A stretch of 64,000 nt of DNA. It comes from Eledone cirrhosa (taxonomy: Eukaryota). The DNA is taken from assembly GCA_964016885.1 (NCBI GenBank), contig OZ024741.1, forward strand, positions 228,346,001 to 228,410,000. Direction: 5' to 3'. Of the stretch, positions 39,521-63,428 are shown one piece after another. The position numbers and the translations under genes were made by a program. Position 1 is the first letter of the stretch. Each line of letters begins with the position of its first letter. The notes beneath the pieces were generated by a model. That model saw nothing but the letters and a program-made list of their open reading frames with translations. It ran no database searches and was not told the origin of the DNA.

Positions 39521-39699
39521 TATATATATATATATATATATATATTTATTTAGGTTTGTTGCTTCACCACTGGATAGAACTGGTCATTCCGTACGGTCAA
39601 CCTCGATGTAATATTAGAGAGAGCACTCGACGTAATGCAACTCACCCGTCTTCGTTTGTGTTGTTGGTGGTGCGAGTACGGAGTTAATTATTCAAAAAT

Positions 39700-40155
39700 A
39701 ACAGGAGACTGGACTGGTGTAGTTCCTTAAAAGGTTTATTATACTATGATCCTTTCAGTGACCGAGTTCAGTATGAATCCGATGACATCATCAGGTATTC
39801 GAAATTTAACAAAGGAATATAATAGACAAAATCCATGGGCTGAAAAGCAGAGACAGGAGAGCGGCCGAACATTTAGCAGCTTCTAGCCCGGTCAGCCGCC
39901 CTCAATACTATTATACAGAATTCCTAATAAAAATAGGTGCTTAATCATATAAGCAATATATATAGGGCGGCTGACCGGGCTAGAAGCTGCTAAATGTTCG
40001 GCCGCCCTCTTGTCTCTGCTTTTCAGCCCCATGGATTTTGTCTATATTATATTGCTTTGTGAGGATGTCACCGGATTCATACTGAACCCGGTCACTGAAA
40101 TGATCACAGTATAATAAACCTTTTAAGGAATAACACCAGTCCAGCCTCCTGTAAT
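39700..40155. repeat. Inverted repeat (arms ~200 bp), each arm with a hammerhead motif (39741-39798 -, 40059-40112 +)
   Basis: Minus: ATAC-CTGATGA-stem II-GAAA-(T/G)GATCA-TA-GTAT. The spacer 39903-39960 is the reverse complement of ~35988-36045. Confidence 0.75.
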
Positions 40156-40157
40156 TT

Positions 40158-40212
<55 letters not shown>

Positions 40213-40217
<5 letters not shown>

Positions 40218-42107: not shown

Positions 42108-45100
42108 TTCAGCTCTGCGCACCTAACTTCTGCATGAACCCAGCCACCTAGCTGCTTTCTACTGCATATTGCACATTGAGCACATGGTTTTACGCTTTGG
42201 CTTCTAACTAACTCACCAATCTCTCCTCTCATATCTCCTCTACTATCTCCATCTCTCTCTTTAAGATTGGTTACTCTTGAACTGTGTATACTTGAGCTCC
42301 CGTAGTTGAGCTATTTACTGTTAGAAGTCACCATGTTGAGCAAACAGGAACTCAGAATCTCACTTAAGTCCATACCTATCCCGGACAGGAAGACATACCT
42401 CAAACTCCTAATACAGAGTGTCAACTCCTTCATCCGAAGAATAAGATGGAAAGCGTAACACTTTGACCGTGCGGTTGCTGCTGACGCCGGAAGTACAGCA
42501 AATAGATATGGATTTACCACATGCAAGAACCCCCCACACAACATCCTGCTGGACCCTTTTGAGAAAGATCTATTCAACTTCGTCAGGAGCATTAAGTTCA
42601 AAAAGCATTATAGACACAAGAATAACTTCCTCACTACATTAGCAACAACTATAAACAATTTTAAAGATAGCAACCTCTTACATGTTATGTCTGACAAAAC
42701 TAAAAATCTATACACCATGACTCCTGAAACTTACAACTCTTTCCTTCTTAAAGAACTCAATAAAAACTATAAAAAAATTACACCCTCCAGTGTAAACGTA
42801 CTTAACCGAAAAGCCCAGGCTTTGGTTAAGGACTTGCATCTGGATAGATTTACCCACCCTTATGTACCAACAACCCCAAGGTTCTCTCTCAAGGATCACA
42901 AGCCAAACTTTATAGAGAACCCATCCATTAGACTCATAAGCCCAACCACATCTGACCTGGGCCGCATCAGTAAGAACATCCTTGATAGGATAATCCCTGG
43001 GCTACGGGATGATACAACCCACAAGTTGTGGTCCAACACCGGCCAAGTCATTAGATGGTTCTCCGATCTAAGGTCCAAGCAATCTATGAGGTTCATCCAA
43101 TTTGACATAGACAGCTATTACGCGTCAATAACCCCGGAACTGCTCCACAAAGCATTAGCCCTAGCCACCACCAACTCGGACATAACCAATAATGAGATTA
43201 GCATCATACTTATGGCTAGGCAGACTATCATTGAATTCAACGGAGCACTCTGGACTAGAAAAGATAGAACAGACAACTTTGACATTACGATGGGCTCAAG
43301 TGACTCCGCGCAAATCACCGATTTAATTGGGATTTACGTATTACGTAACATCAGAGCCGAAATCCAACCCATGCAAGGTGGAATATACAGGGACGACGCC
43401 CTATTTGCAGTCCACAATTGCACTAATCGGGGAATCGATTTGCTAAAGAAACAATTACAAAGATTCTTAAAAAATAACGGTCTCTCTATCACCATCGAGC
43501 CGAACCATAAAGTAGTAAACTTCCTAGACGTCACCCTGGATCTCAACAATAACCTATATAACCCTTACCATAAAGCAGGTGAAATACTCACATATATTAG
43601 CCCACACTCTAACCACCCACCGGCAGTCATCAGAGCAATAATCAAATCTATCTCTTATAGGATCTCAATGCTATCAGCAAATGAGGAGATATTTATAAAC
43701 CACGCACAATATTATAATAAGGCTCACTCTGAATCTGGTTATAATCAATCAATTTATTACATACCTAAATGCGATAACACAGCAATTCACAATAATAAAC
43801 TTAACACTAGAACTAGAAATACTTTAGCATATAGCCAGATTCGCCGGAATTTTAGCAGTAACAGCACCTATACAGGGAACTTTAATGGTGGCAGCGGCCT
43901 TCTCCCCACACCAAGTAGCAAACTAAAAATCAACCCAAGAATAGGAATGAGAATGGGATGACAAATAACAATCCCCAGGTAATAATAACCCTAGGAAGGC
44001 CCCTACCAACTCCACTAGAACCCCTAGAAGGAATAGACCTAGAAATATCACCTAGCTTAACCCCCCATTCTCATCTGATCTAGCCACTAATATTTCCAAA
44101 CGCTTCTTCTCTATCCTATCTAAACACTTCCACCCCAACCATAGATATTACAAACTCTTTAATAAAAATAACATTAAAATCTCATTCTCCACAACACCTA
44201 ACCTAGCTAGCCACATCGCGTTCAGTAACCATCATAAGCTAAGACAGTATAACTCCCACACCGCGGTACCACCACCCCTATCAAATACACCACGCCACTA
44301 TACCAGTAATTACTCTAGTAGCTCACCTCCCCCATCTAATCCTTCTAGCACGGACCTACCGCTTAGGTTAAACAACCCTACTCTCACTAACCGCAGACGC
44401 AACTGCAACTGCCGTTACCCCAATGCATGCCCATTAAATGGACACTACCTGACACCCAACATAGTCTATAGGTGCACGGTTAAGACTGCTTCGAATACCA
44501 GCTCTTATATCAGGTGTACCTCTAACCATTTTAAGGTACGCTATAACGTGCACTCTTTTTCCTTCCGAGACCCTAGCAACAGATGTTCGTCTTCGCTAGC
44601 TAGGCTCATTAAAAACCTTAAATTAAACAACGTTCAATACTCACTAAAATGGGATATCGTGGCTAGGGCCCAACCGTTCAATGGACGAACAAAAATCTTG
44701 TGACCTCTGTATTACGGAAGCATATTACATAACTCTATCACGACCTCTACCGATTAACGATAGAACGGAGGTAACCATTAGCTGTCAACATCGAAGGGCT
44801 AATTCCTTCGCCAATAGAATTTTTTACCCAACTTAGTCATGTAGCCCCATTTTTACTTGTAGCTAATAAGTTAAATTGTTATGAACAACTCTATAATTAT
44901 AAGTTACCTCCCCTCCATCGTCTCTCAATTAAAAAAAAATTTAAATTAGCACTTAACTATAAACACCCACAATTTCTAATCTCTCGAGAAGTTACTTCCC
45001 CTGAAACCACCCTCTAATTAGTAAGGTAAATATGCCCTTTGGCAGCCATCTTGTTACCCATAGGCAGATCTCACACAATGCAGCCTCGTCAGATGAATAC

Positions 45101-45390
45101 TGCTTGATTATGGCTGACAACTGATGCAACCAAGACACCATAGTAAAAACCAATATATGGAACATTATATTATGTAACATTATCCCATTATTTTAATTTA
45201 TATTCCTTTGAAGTTCCGATGAGCCACTCTGTCTTTTAAATATGTTAATTATTTTCAACTGAACCAGATCAATTATGATATATAGTCATCTGATCCAGAA
45301 ATATTTTATAGAATAGCTAAACAATTGTAAAGGGACATTATTATTATTGATATTATTATTCTTATTCTCTACATTCCTTACATCAAGCCA
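42108..45390 (+). mobile_element. Near-complete Naiad-type Penelope-like element
   Basis: pLTR end, ORF 42333-~44836, pLTR with hammerhead motif 45213-45332. Confidence 0.92.
42333..44836 (+). pseudogene. PLE RT + GIY-YIG protein (Naiad-type), with point stops and frameshifts
   Basis: SLKSIPIP, RIRWKA, DKTKNLY, LKDHKPNF, FDIDSYYASI, TMGS, YRDD, FLDVTLDL, SNHPP, NPPFS, CNCRYPNACPLNG, NIVY...YI, CDLC. Confidence 0.93.
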
Positions 45391-45561
45391 CAAATTTCAC
45401 AAGGAAGACATTATTTAAAGATTGTCAACATAGTTGTAGTTTAATGTAAGGAATGTAAAGAATAATAATAATACTAATAATGCCCGTTTACAATTGTTTC
45501 GCTACTCCATATAATGTTTCTGGGTCAAATGATTATAGATAATTTTTTATCTGGTTCAGTT

Positions 45562-46665
45562 CAAATACACCACGCCACTACACCAATACTTACTCTAGTA
45601 GCATACCTCCCCCACCTAATCCTTCTAGCACGCACCAACAGCATAGTTTAAACAACTCTACCCTAACTAACCGCAGCAATAACTGCAACTGCCGTTACTC
45701 TAATGCATGCCCACTAAACGGACAATGCGTTACACCCAATATAGTTCAATGGTGCACAGTTAAAACAGCATCGTATACCAGCTCCTATATTGGCTCTACC
45801 TCTAACCCTTTTAAGGTACGCTATAACGCGCACTCATTTTCCTTCCGAGACCCTAGCAATAGATGTTCGACATCTCTAGCTAGGCTCTTGAAAAACCTTA
45901 AATTAACCAACATTGAACACTCACTAACATGGGATATCTTGATTAGAGCCCAACCGTTCAATGGACGAAGAAACTCTTGTGATCTATGTCTTACCGAAGC
46001 CTATTACATAACTCTATCACGACCTCTACCGATTAATGATAGAACGGAGGTAACTATTAGCCGTCAACATCGAAGGGAAAATTCCTTCGCCAACAGAATA
46101 TTTGACCCAACATAGTCATCTAATCCCACTTTTTCTTATAGCTAACATGTTAAATAGTTATAGCTAACTTAGATAATTATAAGTTACCTCACTTACATTG
46201 TCTCTCACTTAAACTCATTAGCACTTCTTAACTATAATAACCTACAATTTCTAATTTCTCAAGGAGTTACTTCCCCTGAAACCAGCCTCTAATTAGTAAG
46301 ATAAATATGTCTTTTGGCGGCCATCTTGTTACCCATAGGCAGATCTCGCATAACGCAGCCTCAACGGAAGAATATTGCTCGCCTATGGCAGAAAATAGAT
46401 AGACTCAGCACACCATAGTCAAATACCAATATATGGAATATTACATGTAACCATCATGTAACCATCATGTAACCATCATGTACCCATCTTTCTTTAGCGT
46501 AATTTATATTCCTTTTGAAGTTCCGATGAACTACTCCAATTTTTCCTAAGTTAATTATCCTCAACTGAACCAGATCAAAAATGATCTATAATCATTTGAT
46601 CCAGAAACATTATATGGAGTAGTGAAACAATTGTAAACGGACATTATTATTATTATTATTATTAT
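45562..46665 (+). mobile_element. Second, diverged 3' Naiad copy (GIY-YIG + 5' part of pLTR); the pLTR resumes at 62900
   Basis: Homologous to 44282-45340; preceded by an inverted pLTR piece at 45388-45561. Confidence 0.88.
46520..46638 (+). ncRNA. Minimal type I hammerhead with CCGAUGA core and long stem II insertion
   Basis: GTT-CCGATGA-ACTACTCCA...TGGAGTAGT-GAAA-CAATTG-TA-AAC. Confidence 0.7.
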
Positions 46666-46997
46666 TGTTCTTTGAGTCTCAGTCATCGATGTTAGTTAAC
46701 TGGAAAGTTTGTTGAAATGAATATCAAGCCACTACCTGCAGCCTCAGATATTCAGGACGTATCGGAGGGTTCTTACTGTTCCCAGCAAGCATGCCTTTTG
46801 AAGCGTTCCAAAAAGCGGGGCGGGGCCCTTTTCTTAAACCATCCCTGGAAACTTTTTGAGATAGTACCTAGTGCGGCTATGACAATCGGGACCACTTTGA
46901 CTTCATGGCAGTTCCAAATCCTTTTAACCTCCCACTGTAAGTCCTGGTATCGGTTGGTTAATTTTCTCCCTCTCCTTCTCTTGCACTCTCGTGTCAA
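46666..46997 (-). mobile_element. 5'-truncated R4/Dong copy between (TTA)n tracts
   Basis: Highly similar to 47059-47382 (RYQDL..EVKRIWNCHEVKVVPIVI). Confidence 0.92.
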
Positions 46998-47001
46998 ATT
47001 A

Positions 47002-47050
<49 letters not shown>

Positions 47051-47058
47051 GTTATTAC

Positions 47059-50000
47059 TCTTTGAACCTCAGTCATTGATGTTAGTTAACTGGAAAGTTT
47101 GTTGAAATGAAAATCAAGCCACTACCTGCAGCCTCAGATATTCATGACGTATCGGAGGGTTCTTGCTGTTCCCAGCAAGCATGCCTTTTGAAGCGTTCCA
47201 AAAAGCGTGAAGGGGCCAATTTTCTTTAACCATCCCTGGAAACTTTTTTAGATAGTCCCTAGTGCGCCTATGACAATCGGGATCACTTTGACTTCATGGC
47301 AGTTCCAAATCCTTTTTACCTCCCACTTTAAGTCCTGGTATCGGTTAATTTTCTCCCTCTCCTTCTCTTGGACTCTCGTGTCGAATGGGCAGGCCACATC
47401 CACAATCAGGCACGATCTTTTTTCTTTGTCCACAACCACCAGGTCAGGTCTATTGTGTTCCAGTTTCTTGTCCGTCTGTATCCTAAAATCCCACAGCACC
47501 TTCACCTGATCGTTTTCTATCACCGCCTCTGGTCTCCCAGCCCTTATAGTGAGTCTGGGCTAGGTGTTTACACTCGGATACAATGTGAGCCACAGTCTCC
47601 TCTCTCTCTCCACAGATCCTGCACAGTGGGCTAGCCTCCTCCTTGTAAATATGGTGTTTCAACCACTTCGTTTTTAGGGCCTGCTCCTGCGCAGCCATTA
47701 ACATTCCTTCTGTAGCCTTTTAAAGGTCTCCTCTTTTCAACCAGTTCCATGTCTGTGGATCTCTAAATTCAGTTTTCTCAAAGAAGGTACTATGAAGGGA
47801 TTTTTCCTGAAGGCTGCTCTTTCTCTTTGATGTTATTTCCTCCTTGGACATCCCTTGGCCTATTGTCCCCTCCTTCAATACAGTTCTGAGCATTGGCTCC
47901 TTACTATCAGTCACGTATTTGTGTAGGTTGTTTTTCTCCATCTGAACACAGTCCTCTATGCTGATAAGACCTCTTCCACCCTTAGATCTCCTTAAGTAGA
48001 GTCTATCGACATCACTCCTCTTGTGGAACATGTAGATAGTCAATAGCTTCCTAGTCTTCCTATCCATTTCTTTCTGTTCAGCAACATTCCATCTCAGAAT
48101 TCCCGCACTGTACCTAATAATAAACACAGCTCGGGAATTTACTGCACTTATGGCATTCCTACTGTTCAGATGTGACTTTAATACGCTCCTTACTCTCCGA
48201 ATGTATTCAGTTCTTATCAATTCCTTCATTTTTTTGTTCTTGATGTCATCAGCCTCCAGAACGCCCAAATACGTGTATCCTTCTTCAGAGTCAATTTCCT
48301 TTATCATCTCACCCGTTGGTACCTGGATTCCGTTACTTCTGCTCAACTTACCCCTCTTCATCACAATGACTCCACAATTACTAATACCAAATTGCATACA
48401 TATATCATTGGTGAAAATACGGACAGTGTCAACAAGCACATCCAACTCCTTCTCACTCTTCCCGAAGAGCTTAAGATCGTCCATGAAGAGGAGGTGATTG
48501 ATGGTAAGCTCTCCCTTTCCCAACCTGTATCCTGCTCTCACTTTTCGCAGTACACTGGTCAGGGGCATCAGGGCAAGGACAAACAACAGCGGGGACAGAA
48601 TATCTCCCTGGAAGATACCTCTCTTGATCTTCACGCTTCCCAAGGATTCTCCAGTTGATGTTAACTCTGTTTCCCAGGACTTCATACTTTTGCCCAACAG
48701 CTGTCTGATGTTATCTGCCACCTTGAAGATCTCCAGGCTTTTGGTGATCCAAGAATGAGGCACCATGTCAAATGCCTTTTTGTAGTCTATCCATCCCATG
48801 GCAAGACCAGTGTGTCTCCTCTTGCAATTCCTCATTACCATCTTATCAATAAGTAACTGGACCTTTGTACCACGTGACTTCTTTCGGCATCCTTTCTGTT
48901 CATCCGGTAACAAGTTGTTTGTGTGGAGGTGATGGTAGATTTCCTCAGACATAATGCTTGTCCTCAGTTTCCACATTACGGACAGACATGTGATAGGTCT
49001 ATAGTTGGTAACATCATTACCCTTGAATCGGTCTTTTATTATCAGAACTGTGGTATCTTTTGTCAACCACTCTGGTACCTCACCTGACATCAAGCAGTCA
49101 TTGAACATGGTTGTCAGTTTCGGGTGGAGGGATGTTATATTTTTAATCCAATACCCCTGCACACCATCTGGGCCTGGTGATTTCCAGTTGGTTAGTTTGT
49201 TGGCCTGCCCCTTAAGAGTTTCAACTGTGATGCTCAAATCAGTTTGTTGGTGTGCCTGTTCACTAATCTCCTTCTGTACTGTCTCAATCCACACTGCCTG
49301 GTCATTATAGTTAACATCCTGCTCCCATATTCCTCTCCAGAATGTTTTAGTTTGTTCCGCCTCAGGGATCAAGTCGTTGCCTCTTTCTTTCCCTTCAAGC
49401 TGTCCAAACAGCATCTTCTGGTTGTTGTCGAACATTCGGTTCTGTCTATACTGGCTGACTCTGTTCTCGTATCGCCTGATTTTTGCACTCTTTGCTACAA
49501 TGCGTTGCTTCAGTTCCTCTATGATAATATTTAGCTTTTTCCTCCTAGTTTTGTACTTTATTTCCAGTCTATTTTTAGTGTCTATGTTTTTTAGTGTCCC
49601 ATTCAGTAGGGACTCAAGCTTTCCAATGTCATTTCTCATTTCCCTGATTTGACCATTCAGTCGTTTCTTCCACCAAAGTTCTGATCTTTCTTGTTTGTTG
49701 TTTCCTCTCGCTTTTATGCCAAGTAATTTCCTCACCGTATTTGCTGTTGCTTTGAGGATATTGTTGCACTGGTGAAGGCTCCTCGCCTCAAGGTATGGGA
49801 TGATTTTGTTTACCTTAGCTGTTGTTTCTTTTAACTTTTTCCTGTCTACAAATCTTAGGTTCATAGGTCTCCCACTATCATTGTTCAATTCATCTACCAC
49901 TAAGTTTAGGATATCAACCAAATCTTGTCCTAGCCCATCAGCATTCATCTCCTCTGTGGCCGTATCTCTGTTCCAGGTATTATTTATTTCAGCATTCAGA

Positions 50001-50597
50001 TCATTGTCTGCTTCGGGTGGTTCCTCCGTTCTCTCGACCTCTTCACCTTCATTTCCCACTGGCTCGTTTGCCTGGCATACTCCACTCTCCATCTCCAAGC
50101 TAATCTCTCTGCTCAGTTCCTCCAGTTCCAGCTCGCTTATCCACCCATTAGTTCTTATTACCCGAGCCTGCCCGGCCAATTTTTGTTCATCTAATTTAAA
50201 TAGACCAATCTCGTTCCAGATGTTATGCATCCGTTTCCTATAGATTTCTCCTTGGGGTTACTCTTCAGGTAACATTGCATAACAGTTCTATTCAATTCTT
50301 TCGTCCAGTTTGTTCTGGTCCCTTTGCTTCTTCTTCTTCCTCCGACACCAGCAGTATTTGGTTGACAGCTAGGTCCCTGCTGCTGAGCCAGAGAGCACCT
50401 GTTGGGTGAGAGTCTGTCACATGACATTCTAGTCTCCATTTCACCGTTATTCGAACTGTTTAGGCTCGACATTTGACACTCTTATCGAGGATTGGCGAAT
50501 GTATGGTTACATAACCACCGGTGAATTCATCGTCTCCGGTGGTTCCGTCACTCCACGTGATTTTTGTGTGGCATTATCACGCTGTAGACGAACATAA
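47059..50597 (-). mobile_element. R4/Dong-clade non-LTR retrotransposon, family 1 (may extend to 51912)
   Basis: Single long ORF with RT + CCHC + restriction-like endonuclease; 3' end abuts (TAA)n. Confidence 0.93.
47134..50472 (-). pseudogene. R4 ORF (RT, CCHC, RLE) with a few frameshifts
   Basis: WKSPGPDG, YRPITCL, WIDYKKAFDMVPH, GIFQGD, HLLFMDD, YLG, GGRGL, CRIC...HIVSEC, RPDL...DV, VIGALG. Confidence 0.95.
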
Positions 50598-50794
50598 ATA
50601 AACAAACAAACAAACAGGCAAAAAACCCCCAAAAAATGAATAAGCATAAGTTTCATTGTAATGTAGTGTTTGAATGTCTGACTTAGTTTTTCCCTTCCCT
50701 TCTCTGTCCGTCTGTTTGTTTTTCTCTTCATTCTTATTTTCTTTACGTTTTTCGTTGTTGCTGTGCTGCTTTGATTTTTATTTTTGTTTTTTTT

Positions 50795-51912
50795 TTATTT
50801 TGACCGGGTCATCAATTCAGTCTATTTATATATTTTGATGCCTTCCTCTGTTAGTGGGGGTTCTACGATGTAGCAGGGGGTAGCGGGAGAGATTAGCGGC
50901 GGTAGTGGTGGTGGTGGTGTCGGTGCTGTGCTAGCAGCAACTAGCAGGAGGTAGTGGGAGAGAATAGCGGCGGTAGCGATAAATCATTATTAGGCAGTGG
51001 TGGTGGTGATGTGGTCGTATTACTGTAGTGATGGTGTTGAAGTTGGAGTAGAAATAGCGGTTGAGTCGACTTAACCAGAGTTTTCATCGTCGTAGTGGTG
51101 GTGGTGTTGGTGGTGAAATTATCTTTAGTTATTTAGTCATTTTGTCATTTTCCTCCTTTTCGATTCTAACATTCCTGATCCAAAATTAAATATTAATCTT
51201 GTTTATTAATATTGTCTAGTGATACCGCCATCTCCCCCTTTCGTAAGTTAACAGGAGGTAATGGGGGGATAGCGGTGGTAGCAATGAAGGAGTGGTGGAG
51301 GCGGTGATGGGATAGTGGTAGTAATGATGGATGGGCGGCGGTGGCGGTGACTGTAGTGATGGCGTTGTCGTTACTGAGTTTTGTTGAATGAGCTGTATTT
51401 TTGTTTGATCGGTGAATCTATGGGGTTAGTCGCGTATATGTGTTGACATATTTACTTAATATTGGAATTAAACATTTTGTTAAAACTTGATACAATAATA
51501 ATAGTAATTACTATTATTATGCTGAGATTGGTGGTGGTGGTGGTGAAATTGCCGTTATCTGGCTGATGTGTTTAGTGTACACAGAGGGGTGATGGGGTAG
51601 GTGGTGTATCTAGTTTCTGGTGTTGGTGAAATTGCTGTTATTTGGCTGTTCTATATAGTGTAGACAGAGGGGGTTTTCTTCCATTTATAACCATTTTCTT
51701 TTTTGAATATAAAATGTATAATACAAAATTGAATATTTGAGCGATATAACAATATATTATGGATCCGAATTTTTTTGGGACTCAAGCCGGATGTTTTATG
51801 TATCATTTGTACTGAGAATTGTTATTTCACAATTGATTTAAATATGTTAAAAAATCAAAACTTACGGGAGCGATTTCACGACCTTCTATCCACCATGTGC
51901 GTCTTCTTCCCT
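50795..51912 (-). repeat. Module duplicated at ~56170-56965; each copy starts at a (TAA)n tract and points toward an R4 ORF
   Basis: E.g. 51641-51770 vs 56691-56820 differ at only a few positions. Confidence 0.85.
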
Positions 51913-51943
51913 ATTATTATTATTACTATTATTATTATTATTA

Positions 51944-54900
51944 CAGTTGCATTTATCTTGCTTTATGTTCATACGAGTTATCACCAAGTCACAACCAGTG
52001 ACCTCAAGAGACAACAAGGTCCGCCATGTTCAAGAAAGAACATACATACTCACACATGCATCGTTAGTGTTTAAACTTGTGATGTACTTATATTGACAGA
52101 ATCTTCCTTAGTATATGGGCAGTTCCCATTAGTACTATCTTTTGTATTTCTCCTATACGCGGGTTTCCTGGGATTTGCGATAAGTAATCATTAGACCCCT
52201 TAGGTATCATTCCCAGAGCGCCTACAGCCACTGGTATTGTTTTAGTTCTCAATTTCCACATTTTTCCAATTTCTATCTCCAGGTCCTTATACTTGCTCAA
52301 TTTTTCAAATGTTTTTATAGATACATTCTTGTCTATTGGAACAGACATATCAATTAGCAGGCATACCCTCTTTTTAAAGTCCTTCAATATTATATCAGGT
52401 CTATTTGCATCTATTTTTCGGTCTGTTTGGATGCTAAAGTTCCACAAGATTGAGATGTGATCTTTTTCAAGTATGGGAGGTGGTTGATGCTCCCACCAAT
52501 TCTTTTGATGGGGCAGGTCAAAATGCTTACACATTATCCAATGTATGTATTGTGCAGCTCTGTCATGCCTGTTTAGGTATTCGGTTGGAGCTATTGGACT
52601 GCACATTGAAATTATATGGTCAATGGTCTCTGGTTGTTTTTTGTATACACGGCATAATGGGCTGCATCCATTTTTTATTATGTTGGCTTGGTAATTTTTT
52701 GTTGGCAGACACTGATCTTGTGCTGATATAATCAGTCCTTCAGTTTCCGATTTCAGTCCAGAGGATGCCAACCACTGATGGGTTAAAGTTTTGTCAACAT
52801 CAGGATTGTTAGCTCGCTCTGGGTATTTTCCATACAGAGGCTTTTCTTGCCCTTTCGTAGCCAGTTTCTATAGCAGTTCTTTCTTTGCAGTTACTTTTAC
52901 CTGCTTTGCTTTTTCTGTGTTTTCCATTTCAGCAGTAAATGGGACTTCTGAAATTTGTAGTCCATTACTGTATCTTTGTGCATCTTTTGTAATGGAATAT
53001 GATCTTTTGATGCTTTCGTGTTTCAAAACGAGTTTGATCATCCAATCATGTGATTCCCTTAGATATGTAGATAATCCAATTGTTGCAGTTTTCAACGCAA
53101 TGTCTAACTGGATTAACCCACGTCCTCCTTCTTTCCTAGGGAGATATATTCTATCTATATCTGCCTTAGGGTGATGCATTCTGTGCATGGTTAAGGATTT
53201 TCTAATTTTTGTATCGAGCCTACGGATCTCTGTGCTTGACCAGTTGATGACATTGTAACTGTAGGGTACTACTGGTATGGCAAGCGTGTTTATGGCATCG
53301 ATCCTAATCCTTGCATTCAATTCCGTTCTTAAGATTGCTCTTACTCTGCGGTAACATTCCTTCCTTATCCTTTCCCTCATTGTCGAGTGCTTGATTCCGT
53401 CTCCTTCACAAACACCTAGATATTTGTAAGTTTTTTCTTGATCAAGTTCTCTTATCACGTTCCCCCGATCAAGATTAATGTCTGAACTCTTCAGCAGCTT
53501 TCCTCTGGTGAACGTTGCTTTGGCGCATTTATCTAGTCCAAACTCCATTTTAATGTCATCACTGAACTGCTCCAAAGTGGATAATAACCCTTGCAATTGT
53601 TCATCATTTTTTGCAAATAGTTTCAGGTCATCCATGTAGAACAAGTGATTAATGGTTTTGTCATAGACTTTATATCCATGTTTTGTTTCATTGAGCATTT
53701 TACTTTATGGTATAAGTGCGATGCAGAATAAAAGCGGTGATAAAGAGTCACCCTGAAAAATTCCACAATTAATATTAACTTCTCCAGCTTCCAGTGATTT
53801 TGTTTCACTATTCAAAAGGAGTGTCGTTTTCCATGTCTTCATACTAAATGACAAAAACCTCCTGACAACGGGGGATATTTTGAAAATCTCTAAACATTTT
53901 TCAATCCAACTGTGTGGCAAACTATCGAATGCTTTTTTTATAATCTATCCAAGCAATCGATAGAATATTGTGTCTATTATGACAATCTTCCAGTATCATT
54001 TTGTTAACCAAAAGCTGATCCTTACAGCCATATGAGCCTCGTTTACATCATTTCTGCTCAATGGGAAATAGGTCATTTGTTATCAGGTGGTCATATGTGT
54101 ATTCAGTTAGGACTGATGTTAAAATTTTATACATTGTGGTCAAGCAAGTTATCGGTCTGTAATTTTTGGGATTGTTTGCCTCATCATTCTTCGGAAGCAG
54201 GAATGTAATGCCGTTAACTAGCCATGATGGTCTCTTTTCTGGCTCCTTAACTATTTCATCGTAAAGTTGGGCTAACAGCTCATGAGACTCTGTGAAGGCA
54301 TTTATCCAAAAACTTTGTATTTTGTCTTTTCCTGGGGATTTCCATTTGCTGGTTTTTCTTAGAGGCAAGCGCAACTGTTCAACTGTTATATTTTCCCATA
54401 TTTGTTCTTCAAGGTGAGCTGTATCTTTCATTTGTCTGTCTATCCATGGGGCATGTATGTTATGAACTTTTTCTTCGGCCCAGATCTTTTCCCAGAATTC
54501 TTGCACTTCCTCCTTGGGTGGTATTGATTTAGCAGTTATTGTTGACTTACCATTTTTCTGTAGAAGTTTCTTTGGTTGTTTTTGAACATATTATTGTCCT
54601 TATAGAATCTAGATCGTTTTTCAAAGCGCCTTATACGAGCAGCTTTGGCCGACACTTTTTGCTTGATTATTTCTATCAGCATGTCTATGTCACTTGTTGA
54701 TTTTATACTGTATTATATTTTCAATTTTCTAAGTTTAGTTTGTTTAACATGTTCACCTCCTTTGTAGTTTGTTAAAATTTCTATATCAGATCGGAGAAGG
54801 TTTATTTGGCGATTGATGTTCTCTTGCCAAATAGATTTCTTGTGGGAATTCCTTTGTTTTTTCATTTTCACTCCACATAAGTGAGTGGTGACTTTAGCCG

Positions 54901-55920
54901 ATGCATAATAGAGATGATTTAAATCAGTAATGTTAATTTGTTTGTGATGATAATGTTTTTGAGAATTATGTTAGTCATGTGTATTATCTTTTGGTTCTGT
55001 TTGGAGTTCTGGATCTTAGGGAGGGTGTCTCGTTCCCCCATGTCAGATTCTTTCATTTTCATCCATTCGATCATAATTTCATCCTTCAAGTTGGCAAGTT
55101 CATTCTCATTCATTTCTTTATCATTTACGATCTCATTGTTTTCATTTTCAGTTTCATCTTGAGCATGCACTCCCTCCACTTTTTCGATCCTTTCTTTAAT
55201 TTGTTCTGTTGTCAGTGATTCCGCCCCAACCCTGGGATTCGAAGTGTTACAATTTACCTCGTTTTCACTGACACATGTTTTATTTTCCCTTCGCTGACTT
55301 TGTGCTAATAGCTTGATCTGATCAATTTCTATATCAGTTAGTAACTTTTTTTTACAATATTTCTTCGTATATTGGCTAGTTTGTTACTGTCAATATAGCC
55401 TCTGTTTTCGGGATGTTTCTTTTTCCAGTTGATATATGTCTGTTCTGTATTCGATGTATTTGATGGGTAGTACATGGCAGTGTAGAAAGCCTCAAGGACT
55501 TCTTTATTATCTTCCCTTGACCATTTTTCTCTCTTTTTCTTTGGATTTCTTGGTGGTGAGCATGGAGGGCCAACAGTAGGAGTATTCCGGTTATGGGATG
55601 TCTCCAGCTCCGAAGTGATGGGAAGGTTTGAACCATTAGCTGATTTTTCGACCCCAGTCTGGTTCCTCTCTGAGGGACGCGGCCCTTTTTTATCCGGGTG
55701 ACGGCCGATCCGGTATGAGATTTTATCATTTGACATTTACTTTATTTTGTCGCGTTTTATCCTTATCCGCCAAGGGGTAATCATTTCGTGTTACCACTTC
55801 TAGAACGACTGTCAACCAAGACTAGAGGGGTCGTTCTCCCCTAGAGACACGGCTATTCCCCGCCGGCCGCCATCCCGGTATTTCTTGGTCACGGGGTTTT
55901 CTTTTTTGTTGTTTTTTTAA
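51944..55920 (-). mobile_element. R4/Dong-clade element, family 2 (may extend to 56965)
   Basis: 3' end abuts (TAA)n; ORF fragments 52088-55736. Confidence 0.93.
52088..55736 (-). pseudogene. R4 ORF (RT, CCHC remnant, RLE), several frameshifts/stops
   Basis: WKSPGKD, YRPITCL, GIFQGDSLSP, HLFYMDD, KYLG, GGRGL, RHD, RPDII, KLSKYKDL, VGALG. Confidence 0.95.
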
Positions 55921-56964
55921 ATTGTTATTATCATGAGTGGTTCCTTAATGTGAGCATTGCGTGGCTTAAGATGAAATTATTAATAATTGTCTCCACTCCA
56001 GGCACAAGGCCAGCAATTACCCAGTGCATTACAATAATATAATATACTTTTTGCTGAAGTTGCCTGTTATTTTTGTTGGCTATGTCGGTGGTGGTGCTGG
56101 GGCTTTTTATATTGCTGGTGAGGAAGGGGGGAGCCAGCAGTGCCATAGTTGTTGACGTTTGGCCTGTGGCCAGGTCACTAAGTCAATCTATTTATATCTT
56201 TTGCTAGCCTCTCCCTTGTCTAGTGATACCGCCACCTTCCTCTTTCTTAAGTTAACAGGGGAATAGTGGTGGTAGCAATGAAGGAGTGGTGTCGGCGGTG
56301 ATGGGATAGTGGTAGCAATGATGGATGGAGTGGCGGCGGTGGCGTTGTCGTTACTGAGTTTTGTTGAATGGACTAGTTTTTTTGATATGTACTATCTATG
56401 CGTTTGTGTCGCGTATGTTTAATATATGTGTTGAATAGACTAGTTTTGTTTGATCTGTAGTATCTATGCGTTTGTGTCGCGTATGTTTAATATATGTGTT
56501 GACATATTCCCGTAATATTGGAATTAAACATTTTGTTAAAACTTGAGACAATAATAATAGTAATTATTATTATGATGCTGGGATTGGTGGTGGTGAAATT
56601 GCCGTTATCTGGCTGTTATATTTAGTGTACACAGCGGGGTGATGGGGTAGGTAGTGTATCAAGTTTCTGGTGTTGGTGAAATTGCTGTTATTTTGCTGTT
56701 CTATATAGTGTCGACAGAGGGGGTTTTCTTCCATTTATAACCATTTTCTTTTTTGAATATAAAATATATAATACAAAATTGAATATTTGAGCGATATAAC
56801 AATATATTATGGATCCGAAATTCTATGAGACTTGATTCGGTGGTTTATGCATCATTTGTACTAAGAATTGCTATTTCACAAGTGATTTAAATATGTTAAA
56901 AATCAAAAACTTACGGGAGCGATTTCATGACCTTCTACCACCACGTGCGTCTTCTTCCCATATC

Positions 56965-57011
<47 letters not shown>

Positions 57012-57222
57012 GGCGACCTACGTAGTAAATCGTATCATCGTGAGCTCCGCAAAGGTTTGTTATTTCCGTTTGTTAAAAATTGCCATTTATGGAAAATTTT
57101 TATTGTTAACTATATATAAGCGCACATACATTGTTTTCCGAAAAGGACACCCGAAAAGATTGGGGCCTTGTGCCCAAAATTTAAACTTTTATGATTGTCA
57201 AAAAATTTCTTTGAAAAAAAAA

Positions 57223-59113
57223 ATGGCTAATACACCTCTGCACCAAGCAGCTGAGAGCCTTCCTCACAAACTAACACCTCACACCGACACCACCATTGTA
57301 AATGTTACTACGTTTGCCAACACTAAAAAAAATATAAGCAGTAGCAATATTTTAAATTTGTCTCAGGCAGACATTCATTTCCCGCCATTACCAATGACTG
57401 CAGGTGTTAAAGCCGCCACCACCACCATCACCGCGACAACAGAAACAAAAGGAGAAAATAAATCAACGCGTGATGTCGAAATGTTTTCAACCAAAATGGA
57501 CTCTTCCACACCGAACACCACTGACGTCACCACCACCACAACTGAAACTAAAATTAATAATAACAAAAATAACGATAACAACAACAGCAACAATGACATA
57601 AAAAAAACCACACTGAGTTTTGCCAGAGTAGCAAAACAGTGCGAAGCATTTACGGTAACTCAGGAGGAATTAGAAAATGCCCAAAAAATGGTAAATAAAG
57701 ATGGGTACAGGGTCAGCCTCCCCCCCACACCTAATAAAATGTAGCATCGGCGCCTATGCACCGTGTCGTATCGAACAATTAATGTAAAATCGCGCCGAGT
57801 GGAACGGGCATCCGAGTCCCAAATCCAAAAAGCTTTGGGACATGTGTGGGTAAGAAAAACCCACATAAGACGTGGGCAGAAGTATGGAACCGTGGACGTG
57901 TTCTTTGAAACACCAGAGGAGGCTAGAGAACACTCCATGGCCCCATTAAGAAGTGACGACTTCACACTCGTCCCAAGCTATTGTGGCCAGAGACTCGTAA
58001 AGATCAGGGTGACCCACGTTCCACCGGCCATCGAAATTCCCTGGCTAATAGCGGCCGTCCTCGCCGGCATCGAAGCCAACACCAAAATAATAGCAATAGC
58101 AAAAGAAAAGTAGGAGAACTGGTCCGGATCTGGGATGGAGCTCCTGATCCAAGCGGACCAAAAAAGCATTGAGGAGATCCCAGAGGTAATAGACCTCACT
58201 GACGGCAGCCAGCTCACCGTAATTGTCGAGGGCAGAAGGCCTAGGTGTGTTGTTTGTGGTGAAGGAACCCACCTAAGGGCTTTCTGCCCTCAGGCTAAAA
58301 GGTTGAGGCCACCTCTCCTACCCACACCAGTGACTCAACCATCAACACCACCAGTAGCAGAGATGGCAGCAACAACTGTAGCAGCAACAACAGAAGCAAC
58401 TATAACAGCAACAACCCCATCAACAGTAGCAAAACCAACACCACCACCACCACCAGCAAAACCAACACCACCACCACCCAACGCTTCAGAACTAGCACCA
58501 GCGCCTACACCATCCACCACGCCACAACCAAAACTAACGCCTGTGGAGGATTTTCCACTCCTCGGCCTATCACAACTGGAGACAGATTGTGACGACGAGG
58601 AGTGGGAAACGGTATCAGGAAAAAAGAAAAAAAGGAACCAAAAAAGAAAAAAATTATCTTCCTTCCTCCTCCAAAAACAAAATACAGAGGGAAACAAATA
58701 AATTAACAAACAAAAAAGTTAGGACAGATATGCCACCATCCACACTAGCATCACCAACCCCATCACCCATAACACCAACGCCATCACCATCATTAACCCC
58801 AACACCATCATCACCTACACCACAAAAGTCACCAAAATGCGAAATAGAAACAATCCCACAACAAGTGCAAACAAAACGAAACAACCAAAACGATACACAC
58901 TACACAGCATTAAATTTGAACAATAACCAATTATTACACTACATCCAGCACAACACCAGCATCACAGAAAAAGACTACACAACAACCCAAAAATTCACAC
59001 CACCTCCACACATACGAATCACTCGCATCACACAGAAAACGTACATGACACTAAAACAAAAATTCCCCAAAGACATCGGAGACTTCCGACAAGCACTCTC
59101 CAGGAGGATTTAA
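57223..59113 (+). pseudogene. Tx1 ORF1 (zinc knuckle, Pro/Thr-rich), in-frame stops and a frameshift
   Basis: LSFARVA, RGQKYGTVDVFF, CVVCGEGTHLRAFC, EEWETVSGKKKKR. Confidence 0.87.
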
Positions 59114-59225
59114 AAGGACATCCTTCCTGAGGAGGCCACAAGCAGTGAAAAGGATGGAAAACCCATCCTTCCTCTACGAGAAGTAAGGTATGTGGTCTTT
59201 CCCATCTTTTCCACTCCATTTCAAC

Positions 59226-62200
59226 ATGACCTCACTCAGAATAGGCAGTATAAATGCGCGTGGCTTGGGGTCGTCATGGAAGCAGGGCCACCTCCTCAAC
59301 AACCTCAGGTCACTAAACATAGATGTAGTGGCCATCAGCGAGACCAGAATTTCCGAAGCACGGGCCTTCGCACCGATCTTCGGCGGCTATGATGTGTACG
59401 CATCTCCCAGTCGTCCGGGATCGGGGGAGGAGCTGCTGTGCTTTTTCGGAGAGGTTTGGATCTTGCCATACGGGCCATCTTCCTAGACCCAGAAGGTAAG
59501 TTAGTGGTGCTGAAAGTGACCAGCGGAGACGGGCAAGCTTTCAGGTTAGTGGCCGTCTATGCCCTGACAGGAGCAGGGCGGCCTGATTTTTTCCGGCGTC
59601 TGGAGACCTTTCTTGGAACGTCCCGCTCTTTAGTGTTAGTGGGCGACTGGAACGGGATCTTAGATGCACGCTGGGATTGTGTGGGATTAGTGGATAGGGG
59701 AGGAGGGTGCAAGAGTCTCACCAACCTGCTCAGGCGTTTTGAACTGTCTGACAGGTACCGATTGGATTTCCCGAATGTACCAATGTGGACTTGGACAAAT
59801 CGCATAGGGTCATCCAGATCATATCTAGATAGAGTATTTTGTAGGGAAATAGATAGGTCTAGCATAGGCTGTCCACAATTCAAGATAGTCAGCTACACGG
59901 ACCACAAATTCGTGATCTGTGTGCTTGACTTAGATAGGCTTCATAGACGAGGACCCGGCTACTAGAAGCTAAACGCGTCCTTACCAGCGCGCAAGACCTA
60001 CAGAGACCGGATTAGCGAACTAGTAAAGCGGGCGTTGACGGGGGCCATCGTCAACAACAAGTGGTGGTTTGCTCTGAAAAGAGCAATTAGAATAGAGTCC
60101 ATTAGGTTTAGTAAGGCTTTAGCAATAGAGAAAAATAGAGCAGAGGGAGAATTAGTTAGAAAATTAGACGAGGCGCTTTGCAAAGGCATCGCGACCGACG
60201 TACTTGCGGCGAAATTGACCCTTGTCCCAATTCTTCAATGCAAAGCACGAAGGCTGCGTTGTCAGTGCTAGGGTGCGTGCTCTCAGACACGAGGGGATGA
60301 AAGCCGTTCAATGGGCCCGAGTGGCGGAGGCGCGTCGTGGCAACAAAGCCTCGATCCCGTCTTTGGTGGACCACGACGGGCGCATGCTACTCGATCCCGG
60401 GTAAATGTGTGAAGCTTTTCAGCGACACTTCACTCAACTGTTCGAGGGCAGTGGCGGGCCGGATAGAGGGATGAACTTTAGTGTCTAGCTCGACGGACTG
60501 CCGCGGCTCTCGGCCACTGAGGCGGAGTGTTGCGAAAAGCCGATAACAGCCGCTGAAGTACGGGAGGCAATGACTGGCTGCACCAGGGGTAAATCGCCTG
60601 GTTTGGATGGTCTGCCCTATGAACTTTACGTACAAATGCCAGACTTGTTCGGAGGCCTCTTGGCGGACGTCTACTGCAACTGGCAACAGAACGGGAGAAT
60701 TCCCAGCTCTGTGAGCCGAGGAGCGGTGGCGCTGCCGAGAAAGGATCCGAACAAGGGGGATAACAGATAATTTTAGGCCCATAACTCTGCTAAACACAGA
60801 GTTCAAGATTTTGGCCAATGTGCTAGCAAAGAGGTTGGCGCTTGTCGTTGGTGGTCTGGTGGGAGAGGCGCAGACATGCGCCATTCCCAACAGATCCATC
60901 CACGACAACCTCCACCTCATGCGATACATCGTAGAGAGGGTAGCTAGGGAACCTGGCGCGGGTGGGTCTTTGATCAATTTAGATCAGTCGAAAGCCTTCG
61001 ATAGGGTCGACCATCGTTACCTAGCGGCAGTCCTGAGGGCGGCTGGCTTTGGGCCCGTCTTCAGAGGCTGGATCGCTGCCATGCACAGCGACATCTGCTC
61101 TGTGGTGAGAGTGAACGGTCACCTTTCGGAACCGTTCAACATCATGCGCTCGGTCCGCCAAGGATGTCCCCTCTCGTCCCTCTTGTACGTATTGACTCTC
61201 GAGCCATTACTGCACAAACTGGAGACGTTGAGGGGGGTTCCGCGCGAACTAGGATGCGGAAGATCCGTGTCAGCATATGCCGACGATGTCACCGTAGTGG
61301 TGTCGAACGCCAAACACATCGAGGCGATCGGCACTACACTAAAAGAATACGAAGCGGTGACAGGAGCAATGATCAACCAGGAAAAGTCAGTGTGCCTGCA
61401 GCTCGGCACCTGGAGAGGCAGGTCCATGCCGTCCAACAGCGTCGTCGGACGCTGGACGGACGGACCGGTTAAATTGCTAGGGGTCTGGTTCGGTCCGGAC
61501 CTCCAGACGGACAAAAACTGGGACGAGGTGACGAGCAGTGTGGCTTCTCTGACCCAGAAATGGGCCGAGAGGAAGCTATCCCTAAACGGTCGAGCGGAGG
61601 TGGCTAACGCGTACATCGCGTCCGTCATCTACTACCGGCTGACCGTCGTACCTTGTCCTAAGCCCCGCCTGACTGCGCTGGAGCGTTTGCTCTTTAGCTT
61701 TTTGTGGAAGAGACGCGCTCCGATGGTCAGGCGGTCCATCTGCTGTCAACACCCGCTACGTGGAGGGCTGGGCATGCCGTGGCTGATGATGCGCAGACAC
61801 GCGCTCAGGCTACGACATCTCCACCTCTTTCTCGACGGTGATCAGGTGTGGTCGCCATTTGCTAGACACGTCTTTCCCCAGCTCGTCTCCTTGATGGAGC
61901 TGCAGTCCTGGGTCAAGCGAAGATCGAGAGGGAGCGCTTGGAGACTGGAATGTTTTCAGGCGCTCACAGCCCTCGACCAATCGGGCAATGTGATCGGTGG
62001 AAACTCCACCTTGGCGTTCTATAGAGGATTAGTGGAGGGGAAGAGCGACGACGTACTTGGAGAAACTCTAGGCGTCGACGAAAAATCAACTAGCCAATCT
62101 CTTCGGAAGGACTTTCGGGCCGGGTCCTATGGACAACTTCCAGAAATACCTGGCCTGGCAGTGCTACCGGGGAGCTTTGCCAGTTCGGGATAAACTCTAC

Positions 62201-62635
62201 AGGCATGGAGGTGCCGTCAGCCGGGCATGTCCGAGATGCGCGCAGGGCGACGAAACCGTCCTGCACGCACTCGTCCAGTGTCCGAGCATTGCTGACTAGT
62301 GGGTTTATGTCGAACACCTGCTGTCACGTGTAGGACCGATCCGGCTATCAGCTGAGTCCATCGTGAGGATTGCCCCGCTGTCTTCCTTTAGCCGGGAAGG
62401 GCAGGCAGTTTTTATCTGTCTGGTGGCCATGGCGAAAGAGATAGTATGGTGGACACGTTTGAAAGGGCTGAAGACGAGCACTTACCTCTTCGGTGATGCC
62501 CTGATTAACTTTTTCAAATTTCATTTGAAAAGGAAAATCAGGGTAGAGAGGGAAGTGCTTTCTTCCCAGCATTTTGTTGAAATATGGGTGAGAGAAGCAG
62601 GTATGGCCCGAAGCAGGTATGTGTCTGTAAATTAA
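59226..62635 (+). pseudogene. Tx1 ORF2 (APE-RT-CCHC), disrupted
   Basis: INARGL, SET, GDWN, YLDR, TDH, KSPGLDG, LDQSKAFDRVDH, VRQGCPLS, AYADD, KLLG, GGLG, CPRC. Confidence 0.95.
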
Positions 62636-62899
62636 AGGTGGAAAACTGGGAGACGGCACTTGCCCTGGTGGTCAGGGTCACTGTGGTCTTTTAATGGGCT
62701 TTCTCCACAAATGTCCCTCGGAAGTCTCCCCCCTATTGGGGAATCTTTTCTTTGTTATTTTATTACATCCTCTGTTTTTTTTTACACGCAGAAATGCCCA
62801 TTTGTACCGTCCTGTATTGTCCTGTACTGCCCTTAATGTCTATTTTATGTAAACCCTTGTGGTTAATAAAGAAAACATTATTATTATTATTAATATTAT

Positions 62900-63169
62900 T
62901 TACATTCCTTACATTAAACTACAACTATGTTGACAATCTTTAAATAATGTCTTCCTTGTGAAATGTGTGGTCTTGTTTTGCTTAACTAATGAATATTTCC
63001 AGCTCTGTGCACCTAACCTCTGCGTGAACCCAGCCACCTAGCTGCCTTCCACTGCATATTGCACATTGAGCACATGCCTTTACGCTTTTGGCTTCTAACT
63101 AATTCACCAATCTCTCTTCTCCTCTCCTATCTCCATCTCTCTCTTTAAGATTGGTTACTCTTGAACTGG

Positions 63170-63177
<8 letters not shown>
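62900..63177 (+). mobile_element. Distal part of the Naiad pLTR interrupted at ~46665
   Basis: TACATTCCTTACAT continues as in the uninterrupted pLTR at 45370; matches 42108-42290 and the reverse complement of 40213-40490. Confidence 0.88.
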
Positions 63178-63223
<46 letters not shown>

Positions 63224-63229
<6 letters not shown>

Positions 63230-63428
63230 CAACTAGAAATTGATTAACATATGAAACAATCACGGGATAATCTTTACAAATGTGTAAGCACACGTATCTA
63301 TTTTTGAAGTTCTAGTTAACTTTATTTAGTTACCTACCTAGCTATGTGTGCTTACACACTTGTAAAAATTATCCCCTGTGATTGTTTCATATGTTTATTT
63401 ATATGTTAATCAATTTCTAGTTGTTATA
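63224..63428. repeat. Fold-back (MITE-like) element with ~70-bp imperfect arms
   Basis: TATAACAACTAGAAATTGATTAACATAT...GTGTAAGCACAC / GTGTGCTTACAC...ATATGTTAATCAATTTCTAGTTGTTATA. Confidence 0.8.

Follow-up and report, generated by a model that had tools for sequence, protein, structure and literature searches.

The 64,000-nt stretch of Eledone cirrhosa DNA analysed here (the window) raises the question why the pLTR of a Penelope-like element (PLE) breaks off within a (TTA)n tract and continues only behind other retroelements, and what role the PLE plays for these families. According to the original prediction the PLE disperses a target site just 3' of its ribozyme cleavage site, feeding other retroelement families and seeding nested arrays, an interpretation that is partly supported by our analysis. 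The PLE complex and its inserts are composed as follows.

40161..40212, no strand assigned: (TA)n run of the PLE target type, bounding the PLE complex on its outer side
40213..42014, minus strand: inverted 5'-truncated PLE copy of subfamily A, its tract split by a SINE
40518..40706 (approximate), minus strand: full-length tRNA-like SINE within the tract, its sense being that of the pLTR
42106..45391, plus strand: near full-length Hydra-like PLE of subfamily A with 5' leader, ORF and 3' pLTR
45339..45366, plus strand: built-in (TTA)n tract of subfamily A, empty
45384..45561, minus strand: inverted, 5'-truncated arm belonging to the subfamily-B insertion; its tract at 45458-45485 is empty
45561..46643, plus strand: left half of the interrupted pLTR of subfamily B, with EN-coding 3' end, 3' UTR and hammerhead-like motif
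46520..46638, plus strand: predicted type I hammerhead, predicted cut after 46635
46644..46664, plus strand: left tract remnant and R4 tail, (TTA)7
46665..47003, minus strand: 5'-truncated copy of R4 family a, 92% identical over 358 bp to 47033-47386
47049..51911, minus strand: full-length R4/Dong-type element of family a, 5' region at 50600-51911
51944..56964, minus strand: full-length R4/Dong-type element of family b, 5' region at 55950-56964
57010..62877, plus strand: full-length L1-group (Tx1-like) element with a (TTA)n tail
62878..62899, plus strand: Tx1 tail and right tract remnant
62900..63176, plus strand: right half of the split pLTR, comprising the PLE 5' leader (269 nt), followed by (TA)n at 63177-63228

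As had been described, the PLE copy at 46640 breaks off in the tract, visible as (TTA)7 at 46644-46664, and continues at 62900. The 16.2 kb array between the pLTR halves indeed consists of a truncated R4, two R4 families and a full Tx1, all four carrying stops or frameshifts and being separated by TTA tracts (at 47004, 51912, 56965 and 62878). The SINE in the tract of the inverted pLTR copy (about 40518-40706) was likewise found and is presumably of tRNA origin; around it, 40706-42014 is 96% identical to 44042-45351, and 40157-40511 is 89% identical to 62877-63232. The number of two occupied tracts was correct, but the window contains four tracts instead of three: the one at 40491 is occupied by the SINE, those at 45339 and 45458 are empty and the one at 46644/62878 is occupied. 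The copy at 45330, regarded before as an uninterrupted pLTR, does have an empty tract, reading GGGACA-(TTA)n-CTCTACATTCCTTACAT at 45333-45385, but a letter of its GAAA core is altered and the copy is cut about 20 nt past the tract. The ORF of this subfamily-A element (about 2.5 kb, from the ATG at 42333 to about 44836) encodes RT followed by EN and is broken.

The left half (to 46643) and the right half (from 62900) appear to form one pLTR because the inverted arm of the same insertion (45384-45561) retains the pre-insertion join, sharing 95% identity with 62876-62975 and 93% with 46563-46666. Subfamily-B diagnostic letters are common to the inverted arm and both halves and are absent from the copies at 45330 and 40490, and the left half shares 81-82% identity with subfamily A. 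In another copy (L275) tract, leader and ORF are continuous without a break. Judged by these sequence comparisons a misassembly of the 46640/62900 join is disfavoured.

The tract is a feature of the PLE family, as had been presumed: it precedes the right border in all 100 sampled position-ordered arms, is 23-38 bp long and shows subfamily-specific interruptions. Three of 100 right-anchored arms begin inside the tract and were set aside, leaving 97 scorable arms, of which 35 are occupied (95% CI 27-46%), 32 by a SINE beside the right border and three by Tx1; eight right-anchored arms were classed by hand (one SINE, four empty, three cut in the tract). Among the left-anchored arms 10 of 30 are occupied and one more (L272), ending at the tract, is ambiguous. 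Genome-wide, exact pattern matches (gap of at most 30) revealed at least 318 empty arms, and SINE-filled arms number at least 419 of 2,733, corresponding to about 150 times the genome-average SINE density; due to the unequal gap limits no ratio was taken between 318 and 419.

The tract is occupied by independent SINE, R4 and Tx1 insertions. The SINE 5' ends and the cut points differ among occupied arms; among the 32 inverted-arm pairs listed, seven combine a SINE-bearing arm with one whose tract is empty, and in pairs with a SINE in both arms the two SINEs differ. Descent from one chimeric PLE-SINE master was rejected on account of this variation in SINE 5' ends, cut points and arms. The insertions are specific to the motif: apart from the tract, 86 kb of PLE sequence contained just six SINE insertions, all of them at one AATAAT site located about 60 bp upstream of the tract inside a hairpin of the same pLTR. 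Further PLE copies host arrays, one of about 12 kb with six elements and another with two R4s in about 8 kb; at L007 both arms are affected. These arrays bear out the proposed seeding of nested arrays. Comparing four contig sets with an intact copy, tract-spanning contigs of the PLE family were found in two organisms.

Domain order and motifs assign the PLE to a Hydra-like and not a Naiad lineage. In its translation the RT motifs come first and an EN-like domain last within a single ORF, and IRWKA (RWK) and SDKTK (DKT) are present; inspection by eye further showed a CNCRYPNAC linker (CxCX5C), CDLC (CxxC) and CQH (CxH), with no CCHH in the EN. The short and long arms of the genome-wide copies end in (TA)n, the Hydra target type, and do so at either of two fixed positions, 97 or 269 nt beyond the tract. 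According to the accessible text of Craig et al. 2021 (PMC8557442), the Hydra clade is characterised by a C-terminal EN, RWK and DKT, CxCX5C, CxxC and CxH without CCHH, a hammerhead in the pLTR, a (TA)n target and an inverted 5'-truncated arm; the present PLE shares these features, its hammerhead being a predicted one with a variant core. Unlike the Hydra elements described there, the present PLE carries (TTA)n inside the element, behind a predicted hammerhead whose core is of the U4C type and whose stem-loop II is long, and one end has a 172-nt extension, the PLE tail being stated as 30-40 bp; its unit of about 3.3 kb is slightly above the stated <3 kb.

The earlier Naiad label had to be given up. 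The same text describes Naiads as having an N-terminal EN and lacking canonical hammerheads; (TA)n bias, pLTR and inverted arms are common to both, whereas EN position and hammerhead are reversed in the present PLE. The N-terminal GIY-YIG EN, the DKA motif and the lack of a canonical hammerhead expected of a Naiad were all not found: RT precedes EN, the motif reads DKT and a hammerhead-like motif is present. A Pfam search with three PLE fragments gave no match, and the protein matches in the Atlas were HTH_animal/DUF8422 clusters. No PLE with an internal TTA landing site was found in our literature search, the scope of which ended before most subscription papers, Repbase and the supplements of PMC8557442. 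These supplements may hold related Hydra sequences.

The predicted hammerhead at 46520..46638 comprises a GTT/AAC stem I, the core CCGATGA (a U4C variant, present in 72 of 88 PLE copies), a long stem-loop II and GAAA-C-AATT-G-UA, and the (TTA)n tract begins 8 nt 3' of its predicted cleavage site. An Rfam scan of 39500-64000 detected no hammerhead, only chance miRNA hairpins, and the fold of 46505-46664 was not unusually stable (z -0.72), stem I being mis-registered. The accessible text of PMC3088659 describes the U4C core as weak in vitro. A sister Hydra-like family has a hammerhead with CTGAAGA and a palindromic stem III and lacks a (TTA)n tract in 20 loci; hence the sequences give no sign that the position of the tract beside the ribozyme matters. 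Terminons/Athena, as far as described in the accessible text of PMC6431247, carry reverse-complement telomeric repeats directly after the hammerhead. A short simple repeat immediately 3' of the hammerhead is thus shared, but theirs constitutes the 3' terminus and pairs with the telomere, whereas the repeat of the present PLE, an EN-bearing element with (TA)n at its end, is internal.

Both R4 families have a single ORF with RT and C-terminal CCHC and RLE motifs and no N-terminal zinc fingers; the best PDB matches of their proteins are R2 proteins, with relatives of 1,050-1,200 aa. The family a element contains RT, CCHC and RLE motifs, an in-frame stop and a 3' deletion, and family b, with many stops, shares 29-43% protein identity with it, although the 5' regions of the two are 81-94% identical. 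The blocks 50600-51911 and 55950-56964 were considered as a separate element and rejected, being these R4 5' regions. A (TAA)n flank on the sense strand adjoins 28 of 30 sampled R4 3' ends and is short or broken in two, in agreement with the (TAA)n target of Dong/R4 elements, which likewise have a single ORF with RT and RLE (accessible texts of PMC7998251 and PMC3774820). In contrast to the elements described there, the present R4s occur almost only in tails of other retroelements and two families share a 5' region.

The Tx1-like element was assigned to the L1 group by its APE, RT and ORF1 CCHC knuckle; its frames are broken, its PDB matches are LINE-1 and R2 only, and 28 of 30 copies of the family have a (TTA)n end. 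The target-specific Tx1-clade elements of PMC4640811, whose targets include microsatellites and transposons, share the L1-group APE and RT, the ORF1 knuckle and the strong repeat association; the accessible text presents no (TTA)n-specific family, whereas the present one is (TTA)n-tailed.

Exact patterns with a 30-base gap limit, which undercount long tails, place at least 419 of 196,366 SINE ends (0.21%, counted by the SINE 3' 15-mer), at least 5 of 1,703 Tx1 ends (0.29%) and at least 6 of 4,572 R4 ends (0.13%) in the PLE. The PLE hosts under about 1% of the counted copies of each insert family and is therefore likely one ordinary hot spot among many. With about 0.1-0.3% of SINE, Tx1 and R4 ends hosted, the claim that the PLE feeds other retroelement families is weak. 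Most R4 and Tx1 insertions have landed in tails of one another or of SINEs: a library element follows in 15 of 30 Tx1 ends and 27 of 30 R4 ends, none of either 30 tails leading into a PLE. Of 51 Tx1 ends, 15 have an R4 end nearby (1.1 at random). Another SINE comes next in 4 of 8 SINE tails of at least 15 bp and in 6 of 35 tails of 3-8 bp. A special status of the PLE tract over other (TTA)n was not supported, other tails adjoining elements at least as often; PLE tract occupancy was lower than that of other tails (Fisher p 0.03, computed with 18/30). Tracts beside elements overstate background occupancy because inserts make their own tails, and the comparison does not control for tract age or for an earlier empty state.

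In evenly spaced DNA totalling 860 kb, a hand count gave 20 non-PLE loci whose tract is at least 20 bp long, 16 of them adjoining a retroelement end and four naked. PLE arms represent about 7 of 58 tracts of at least 15 bp in this sample, more than predicted from the count of 2,733 arms. Since naked long tracts are rare and PLE arms exceed prediction, a notable share of the long tracts that newly arise empty may come from the PLE.

Taken together we consider it probable that the PLE tract is hit like any other TTA run, the PLE being a passive carrier and minor supplier. The Hydra-like PLE inserts into (TA)n and brings (TTA)n just 3' of the predicted hammerhead, and about one third of the sampled arms were later hit there by a TTA-tailed SINE and by R4 and Tx1-like insertions. 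The reason is probably no more than that these families favour every TTA run in this genome as a hot spot. Every insert leaves TTA on both sides, as tail and as duplicated target, so that a tract, once hit, probably offers a longer target with several sites and the array expands; the array of 16 kb is a long example. The tract is probably a passenger confined to this family and may stem from an old tail in its master copy. Nested insertion into the tails of earlier retroelements occurs for example with Alu or L1 in poly(A) tails, where the simple repeat of one element likewise is the target of the next one; here, however, the carrier targets a different repeat and thereby converts (TA)n sites into (TTA)n sites. 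Against such a generic hot spot, two subfamilies that differ by about 18% have both retained the tract despite the one-in-three hit rate, which drift may not suffice to explain.

It seems unlikely that the pLTR context, with its transcription, adjoining (TA)n and long hairpin, raises the hit rate of the tract above that of other TTA runs and that the PLE is a main founder of new arrays. The occupancy (36% at a 30 bp site of a young family), the visible share of PLE arms among long tracts and the second SINE hot spot at a mere AATAAT, where context could raise the rate, would fit this reading. However, of 100 R4 ends one has a PLE border within 10 kb (1.3 at random) and of 92 Tx1 ends none, PLE halves were found at none of the nine tract loci with a LINE in the 860 kb, and other tails precede elements as often or more often.

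That (UUA)n serves the PLE itself in annealing or priming or as a spacer for ribozyme folding, with insertions as a side cost, is very unlikely, although the tract takes the position of the Terminon repeat (accessible text of PMC6431247), is retained in subfamilies A and B and coincides with the end of one of 30 left-anchored arms (L272). The sister family lacks it in 20 loci, the U4C core has been described as weak in vitro, and copies end beyond the tract in (TA)n. Priming at the tract was rejected as the normal mode. We regard it as highly improbable that selection keeps the tract in a loop of four cross-feeding retroelement families, in which the (TA)n-targeting PLE would found fresh long (TTA)n where naked ones are rare and (UUA)n, as a Terminon-like annealing stretch, would let PLE RNA use R4/Tx1 endonuclease nicks in (TAA)n. 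Misassembled halves or a single chimeric master as the source of the filled tracts are extremely unlikely, given the join retained in an inverted arm matching both halves, similar arrays at other PLE copies and junctions varying among copies and arms.

With about 2,700 or more sites of known empty state, the PLE offers a countable system for niche making by transposons, in which one site in three is hit, the paired arms serve as internal controls and the target preference and timing of the SINE, the two R4 families and the Tx1 family can be read from PLE sites. The wider pattern, (TAA)n-specific R4 lying almost wholly in the tails of other retroelements, may matter more, the PLE being a small part of this TTA-tail economy. 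Annotation should allow for pLTR halves that lie 6-16 kb apart on account of such arrays.

In this animal genome of 3.0 Gb, the window (C2:228,346,001-228,410,000) contains a complex of Penelope-like element (PLE) copies, one of which is split within its terminal repeat (pLTR) at an internal (TTA)n tract, and 16.2 kb of DNA separate the two pLTR halves:

40161-63228: complex of PLE copies
45384-45561: inverted arm, 5'-truncated, tract empty
45561-63177: split PLE copy, reaching GGACA at 46643, passing into (TTA)n, resuming at 62900 and ending in (TA)n at 63177
46665-47003, minus strand: R4, 5'-truncated
47049-51911, minus strand: R4 family a (R4a)
51944-56964, minus strand: R4 family b (R4b)
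57010-62877, plus strand: L1/Tx1-type element

Every joint within this array has a TTA run, and the reading frames of all four inserted elements are broken. The window sequence thereby bears out the original observation of a pLTR that halts in (TTA)n near 46640 and restarts at 62900 with three R4 elements and a Tx1 between; two blocks it had left unnamed (50600-51911 and 55950-56964) are the 5' regions of R4a and R4b, respectively.

The inverted arm is 95% identical to the right half and 93% identical to the left, and diagnostic letters of subfamily B are common to this arm and both halves. Based on these matches the halves at 46643 and 62900 are assigned to one pLTR, and the suspicion that they derive from different subfamilies was checked and can be set aside. 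The copies at 45330 and 40490 belong to subfamily A (81-82% identity to subfamily B across the left pLTR). At 45367-45400 the right end of copy 1 runs directly into the inverted arm of copy 2, and ~100 bp are missing; this is what one would expect had copy 2 landed in the terminal (TA)n of copy 1 and the palindrome centre then been lost.

The PLE open reading frame places the reverse transcriptase first and the endonuclease last, its translation contains RWK, DKT, CxCX5C, CxxC and CxH motifs, and the arms have two fixed termini, which lie 97 and 269 nt beyond the tract, both within (TA)n. These features agree with those described for the Hydra clade (PMC8557442), and the element thus appears to be Hydra-like. 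The initial label Naiad is wrong, since the same source describes Naiads with an N-terminal endonuclease and without a canonical hammerhead. The two end points (62900-63176 in the window) imply a one-sided extension of 172 nt, exceeding the 30-40 bp tail given there for PLEs (PMC8557442).

Genome-wide exact-motif counts were 2,733 for the right border (PLE sequence 3' of the tract) and 2,017 for the left border (5' of it). When the DNA upstream of the first 100 of 312 matches to a longer right-border pattern was read in positional order, the TTA tract was present in all 100 arms, as claimed for a built-in (TTA)n. Empty tracts mostly measure 23-38 bp, and their interruptions are subfamily-specific. 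Some empty tracts show pure-TTA expansion to 56-90 bp (L049, L060, L063, L073, L095, L023), perhaps through slippage or tail-only insertions. The tract is family-specific, since no TTA tract follows the hammerhead (CTGAAGA core) of a sister Hydra-like family in 20 loci (L302-L321). This AT-rich sister family (~2,300 candidates, 97-99% identical) has a canonical hammerhead core, and its 3' UTR contains an internal (C)n-(TA)n run.

Among the right-anchored arms 62 were empty and 35 occupied by another retroelement, an occupancy of 35/97 (95% CI 27-46%) with three arms starting within the tract set aside; the occupant next to the right border was a SINE in 32 arms and Tx1 in 3. Of the first 30 of 2,017 left-anchored arms, 10 were occupied, 19 empty and 1 in neither class. 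The insertions are independent: SINE 5' ends and cut points vary among occupied arms, in 7 of the 32 pairs listed one arm holds a SINE while the tract of its partner is empty, and where both arms carry a SINE, the two differ. Orientation is fixed, SINE and Tx1 always being in TTA sense and R4 in TAA sense. In line with the expectation that the tract seeds nested arrays, there are further PLE-hosted arrays:

L110: ~12 kb, five R4 pieces and a full Tx1
L286: ~8 kb
L080: ~6 kb
L007: both arms

A type I hammerhead-like motif, not detected by the Rfam scan, lies in the pLTR; its stem III is palindromic and its stem-loop II is long. Its core is CCGATGA in 72 of 88 copies, a U4C variant reported to be much weaker in vitro (PMC3088659), and the predicted cut lies 8 nt 5' of the tract. 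Terminons are likewise described with a repeat directly after the hammerhead (PMC6431247), but the tract is not the terminus of the PLE copies here, with one possible exception among the 30 left-anchored arms. In 86 kb of PLE sequence outside the tract, all six SINE insertions passing a strict filter lie at one AATAAT site. This second SINE hot spot, within stem-loop II (equivalent to window ~46575-46590), holds antisense SINEs with differing truncations (L008, L022, L023, L026, L031, L108, L109, L114).

The further proposal that the PLE feeds other retroelement families found little support. Of 196,366 SINE ends, 419 adjoin a PLE border, 5 of 1,703 Tx1 ends lie in the PLE and 6 of 4,572 R4a ends at its left border, all lower bounds because exact patterns were used and the gap was limited to 30. 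A (TTA)n tail was present at 28 of the first 30 Tx1 ends (three of which are one tandem locus); a library element came next in 15, or up to 19 with recurring unnamed starts. For the first 30 R4a ends this number was 27, or 29 with an unnamed family, and a PLE followed the tail at none of the 30 Tx1 and none of the 30 R4a ends. On C1, a PLE border is found within 10 kb of 1/100 R4a ends and 0/92 Tx1 ends (1.3 per 100 expected at random), while 15/51 Tx1 ends are that close to an R4a end (1.1 expected at random).

An evenly spaced 860 kb sample contained 20 non-PLE loci whose tract measures ≥20 bp; 16 of them adjoin a retroelement end (hand count), R4 or Tx1 at nine, and none of these nine has PLE halves. 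Another element follows the SINE tail in 6/35 cases at 3-8 bp, 3/12 at 9-14 bp and 4/8 at ≥15 bp; most SINEs have a short tail and unique flanks and therefore need no long tract. The PLE tract is often occupied, but so are the tails of other elements. Some results point the other way: these backgrounds are inflated and no clean test, since the inserts themselves make the tails; long naked tracts are rare and PLE arms provide ~7 of the 58 tracts of ≥15 bp in the 860 kb, so that new sites may owe more to the PLE than its share of insertions indicates; and the tract persists in two PLE subfamilies although it is hit so often. At L233, a 556-bp tandem repeat has a built-in 17-bp TTA run, occupied in 0/10 listed units.

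Endonuclease cutting and target-primed reverse transcription are established for the R4, Tx1 and SINE groups, and TTA flanks the inserts on both sides. Presumably (TA)n is the site cut by the PLE endonuclease, and the PLE RNA is copied through the hammerhead, the tract and the leader; the endonucleases of R4 and Tx1 would next cut the TAA or TTA strand of the tract, where the TTA tail of a SINE could pair during target-primed reverse transcription, and each insertion would lengthen and double the target. As a guess, the tract originated as an old tail. At the sequence level, a nested array in a Hydra-like PLE with a (TTA)n tract of one-in-three occupancy is real and well supported. It extends the known nesting at microsatellite targets; arrays mostly lack the PLE, and the PLE is probably not a privileged feeder. 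The literature searched, of limited coverage, included no paper describing an internal TTA landing site in a PLE.

Dong elements are reported to target (TAA)n in insects, molluscs and cnidarians (PMC7998251). R4a and R4b share 29-43% protein identity and a common 700-bp 5' region (51212-51911 and 56216-56964 in the window; L133, L179, L194, L198, L202), 81% identical overall and 86-97% across the first 400 bp. L194, a family a copy, and L202, a family b copy, carry a variant of this region with 96% identity between them, suggesting that the two families have exchanged 5' sequence. The R4b 5' region includes a fixed SINE 3' piece. Another retroelement adjoins 29 of 30 R4a 3' tails (L191-L220), a Tx1-type end meeting the R4a tail-to-tail in 12 cases and a SINE in 6; judged from these, the (TAA)n-specific R4 appears almost wholly confined to the tails of other elements. 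R4a also lies within the tails of an unnamed repeat family with (ATT)n after its 3' end (L129, L159, L235, L211, L216). Older Tx1-like pieces in the window (1-882, 1208-1423, 3930-7212) show 66-72% identity with the L1/Tx1-type element of the array (57010-62877), and a MITE-like self-complementary element of ~460 bp (39695-40158) lies immediately left of the PLE complex.
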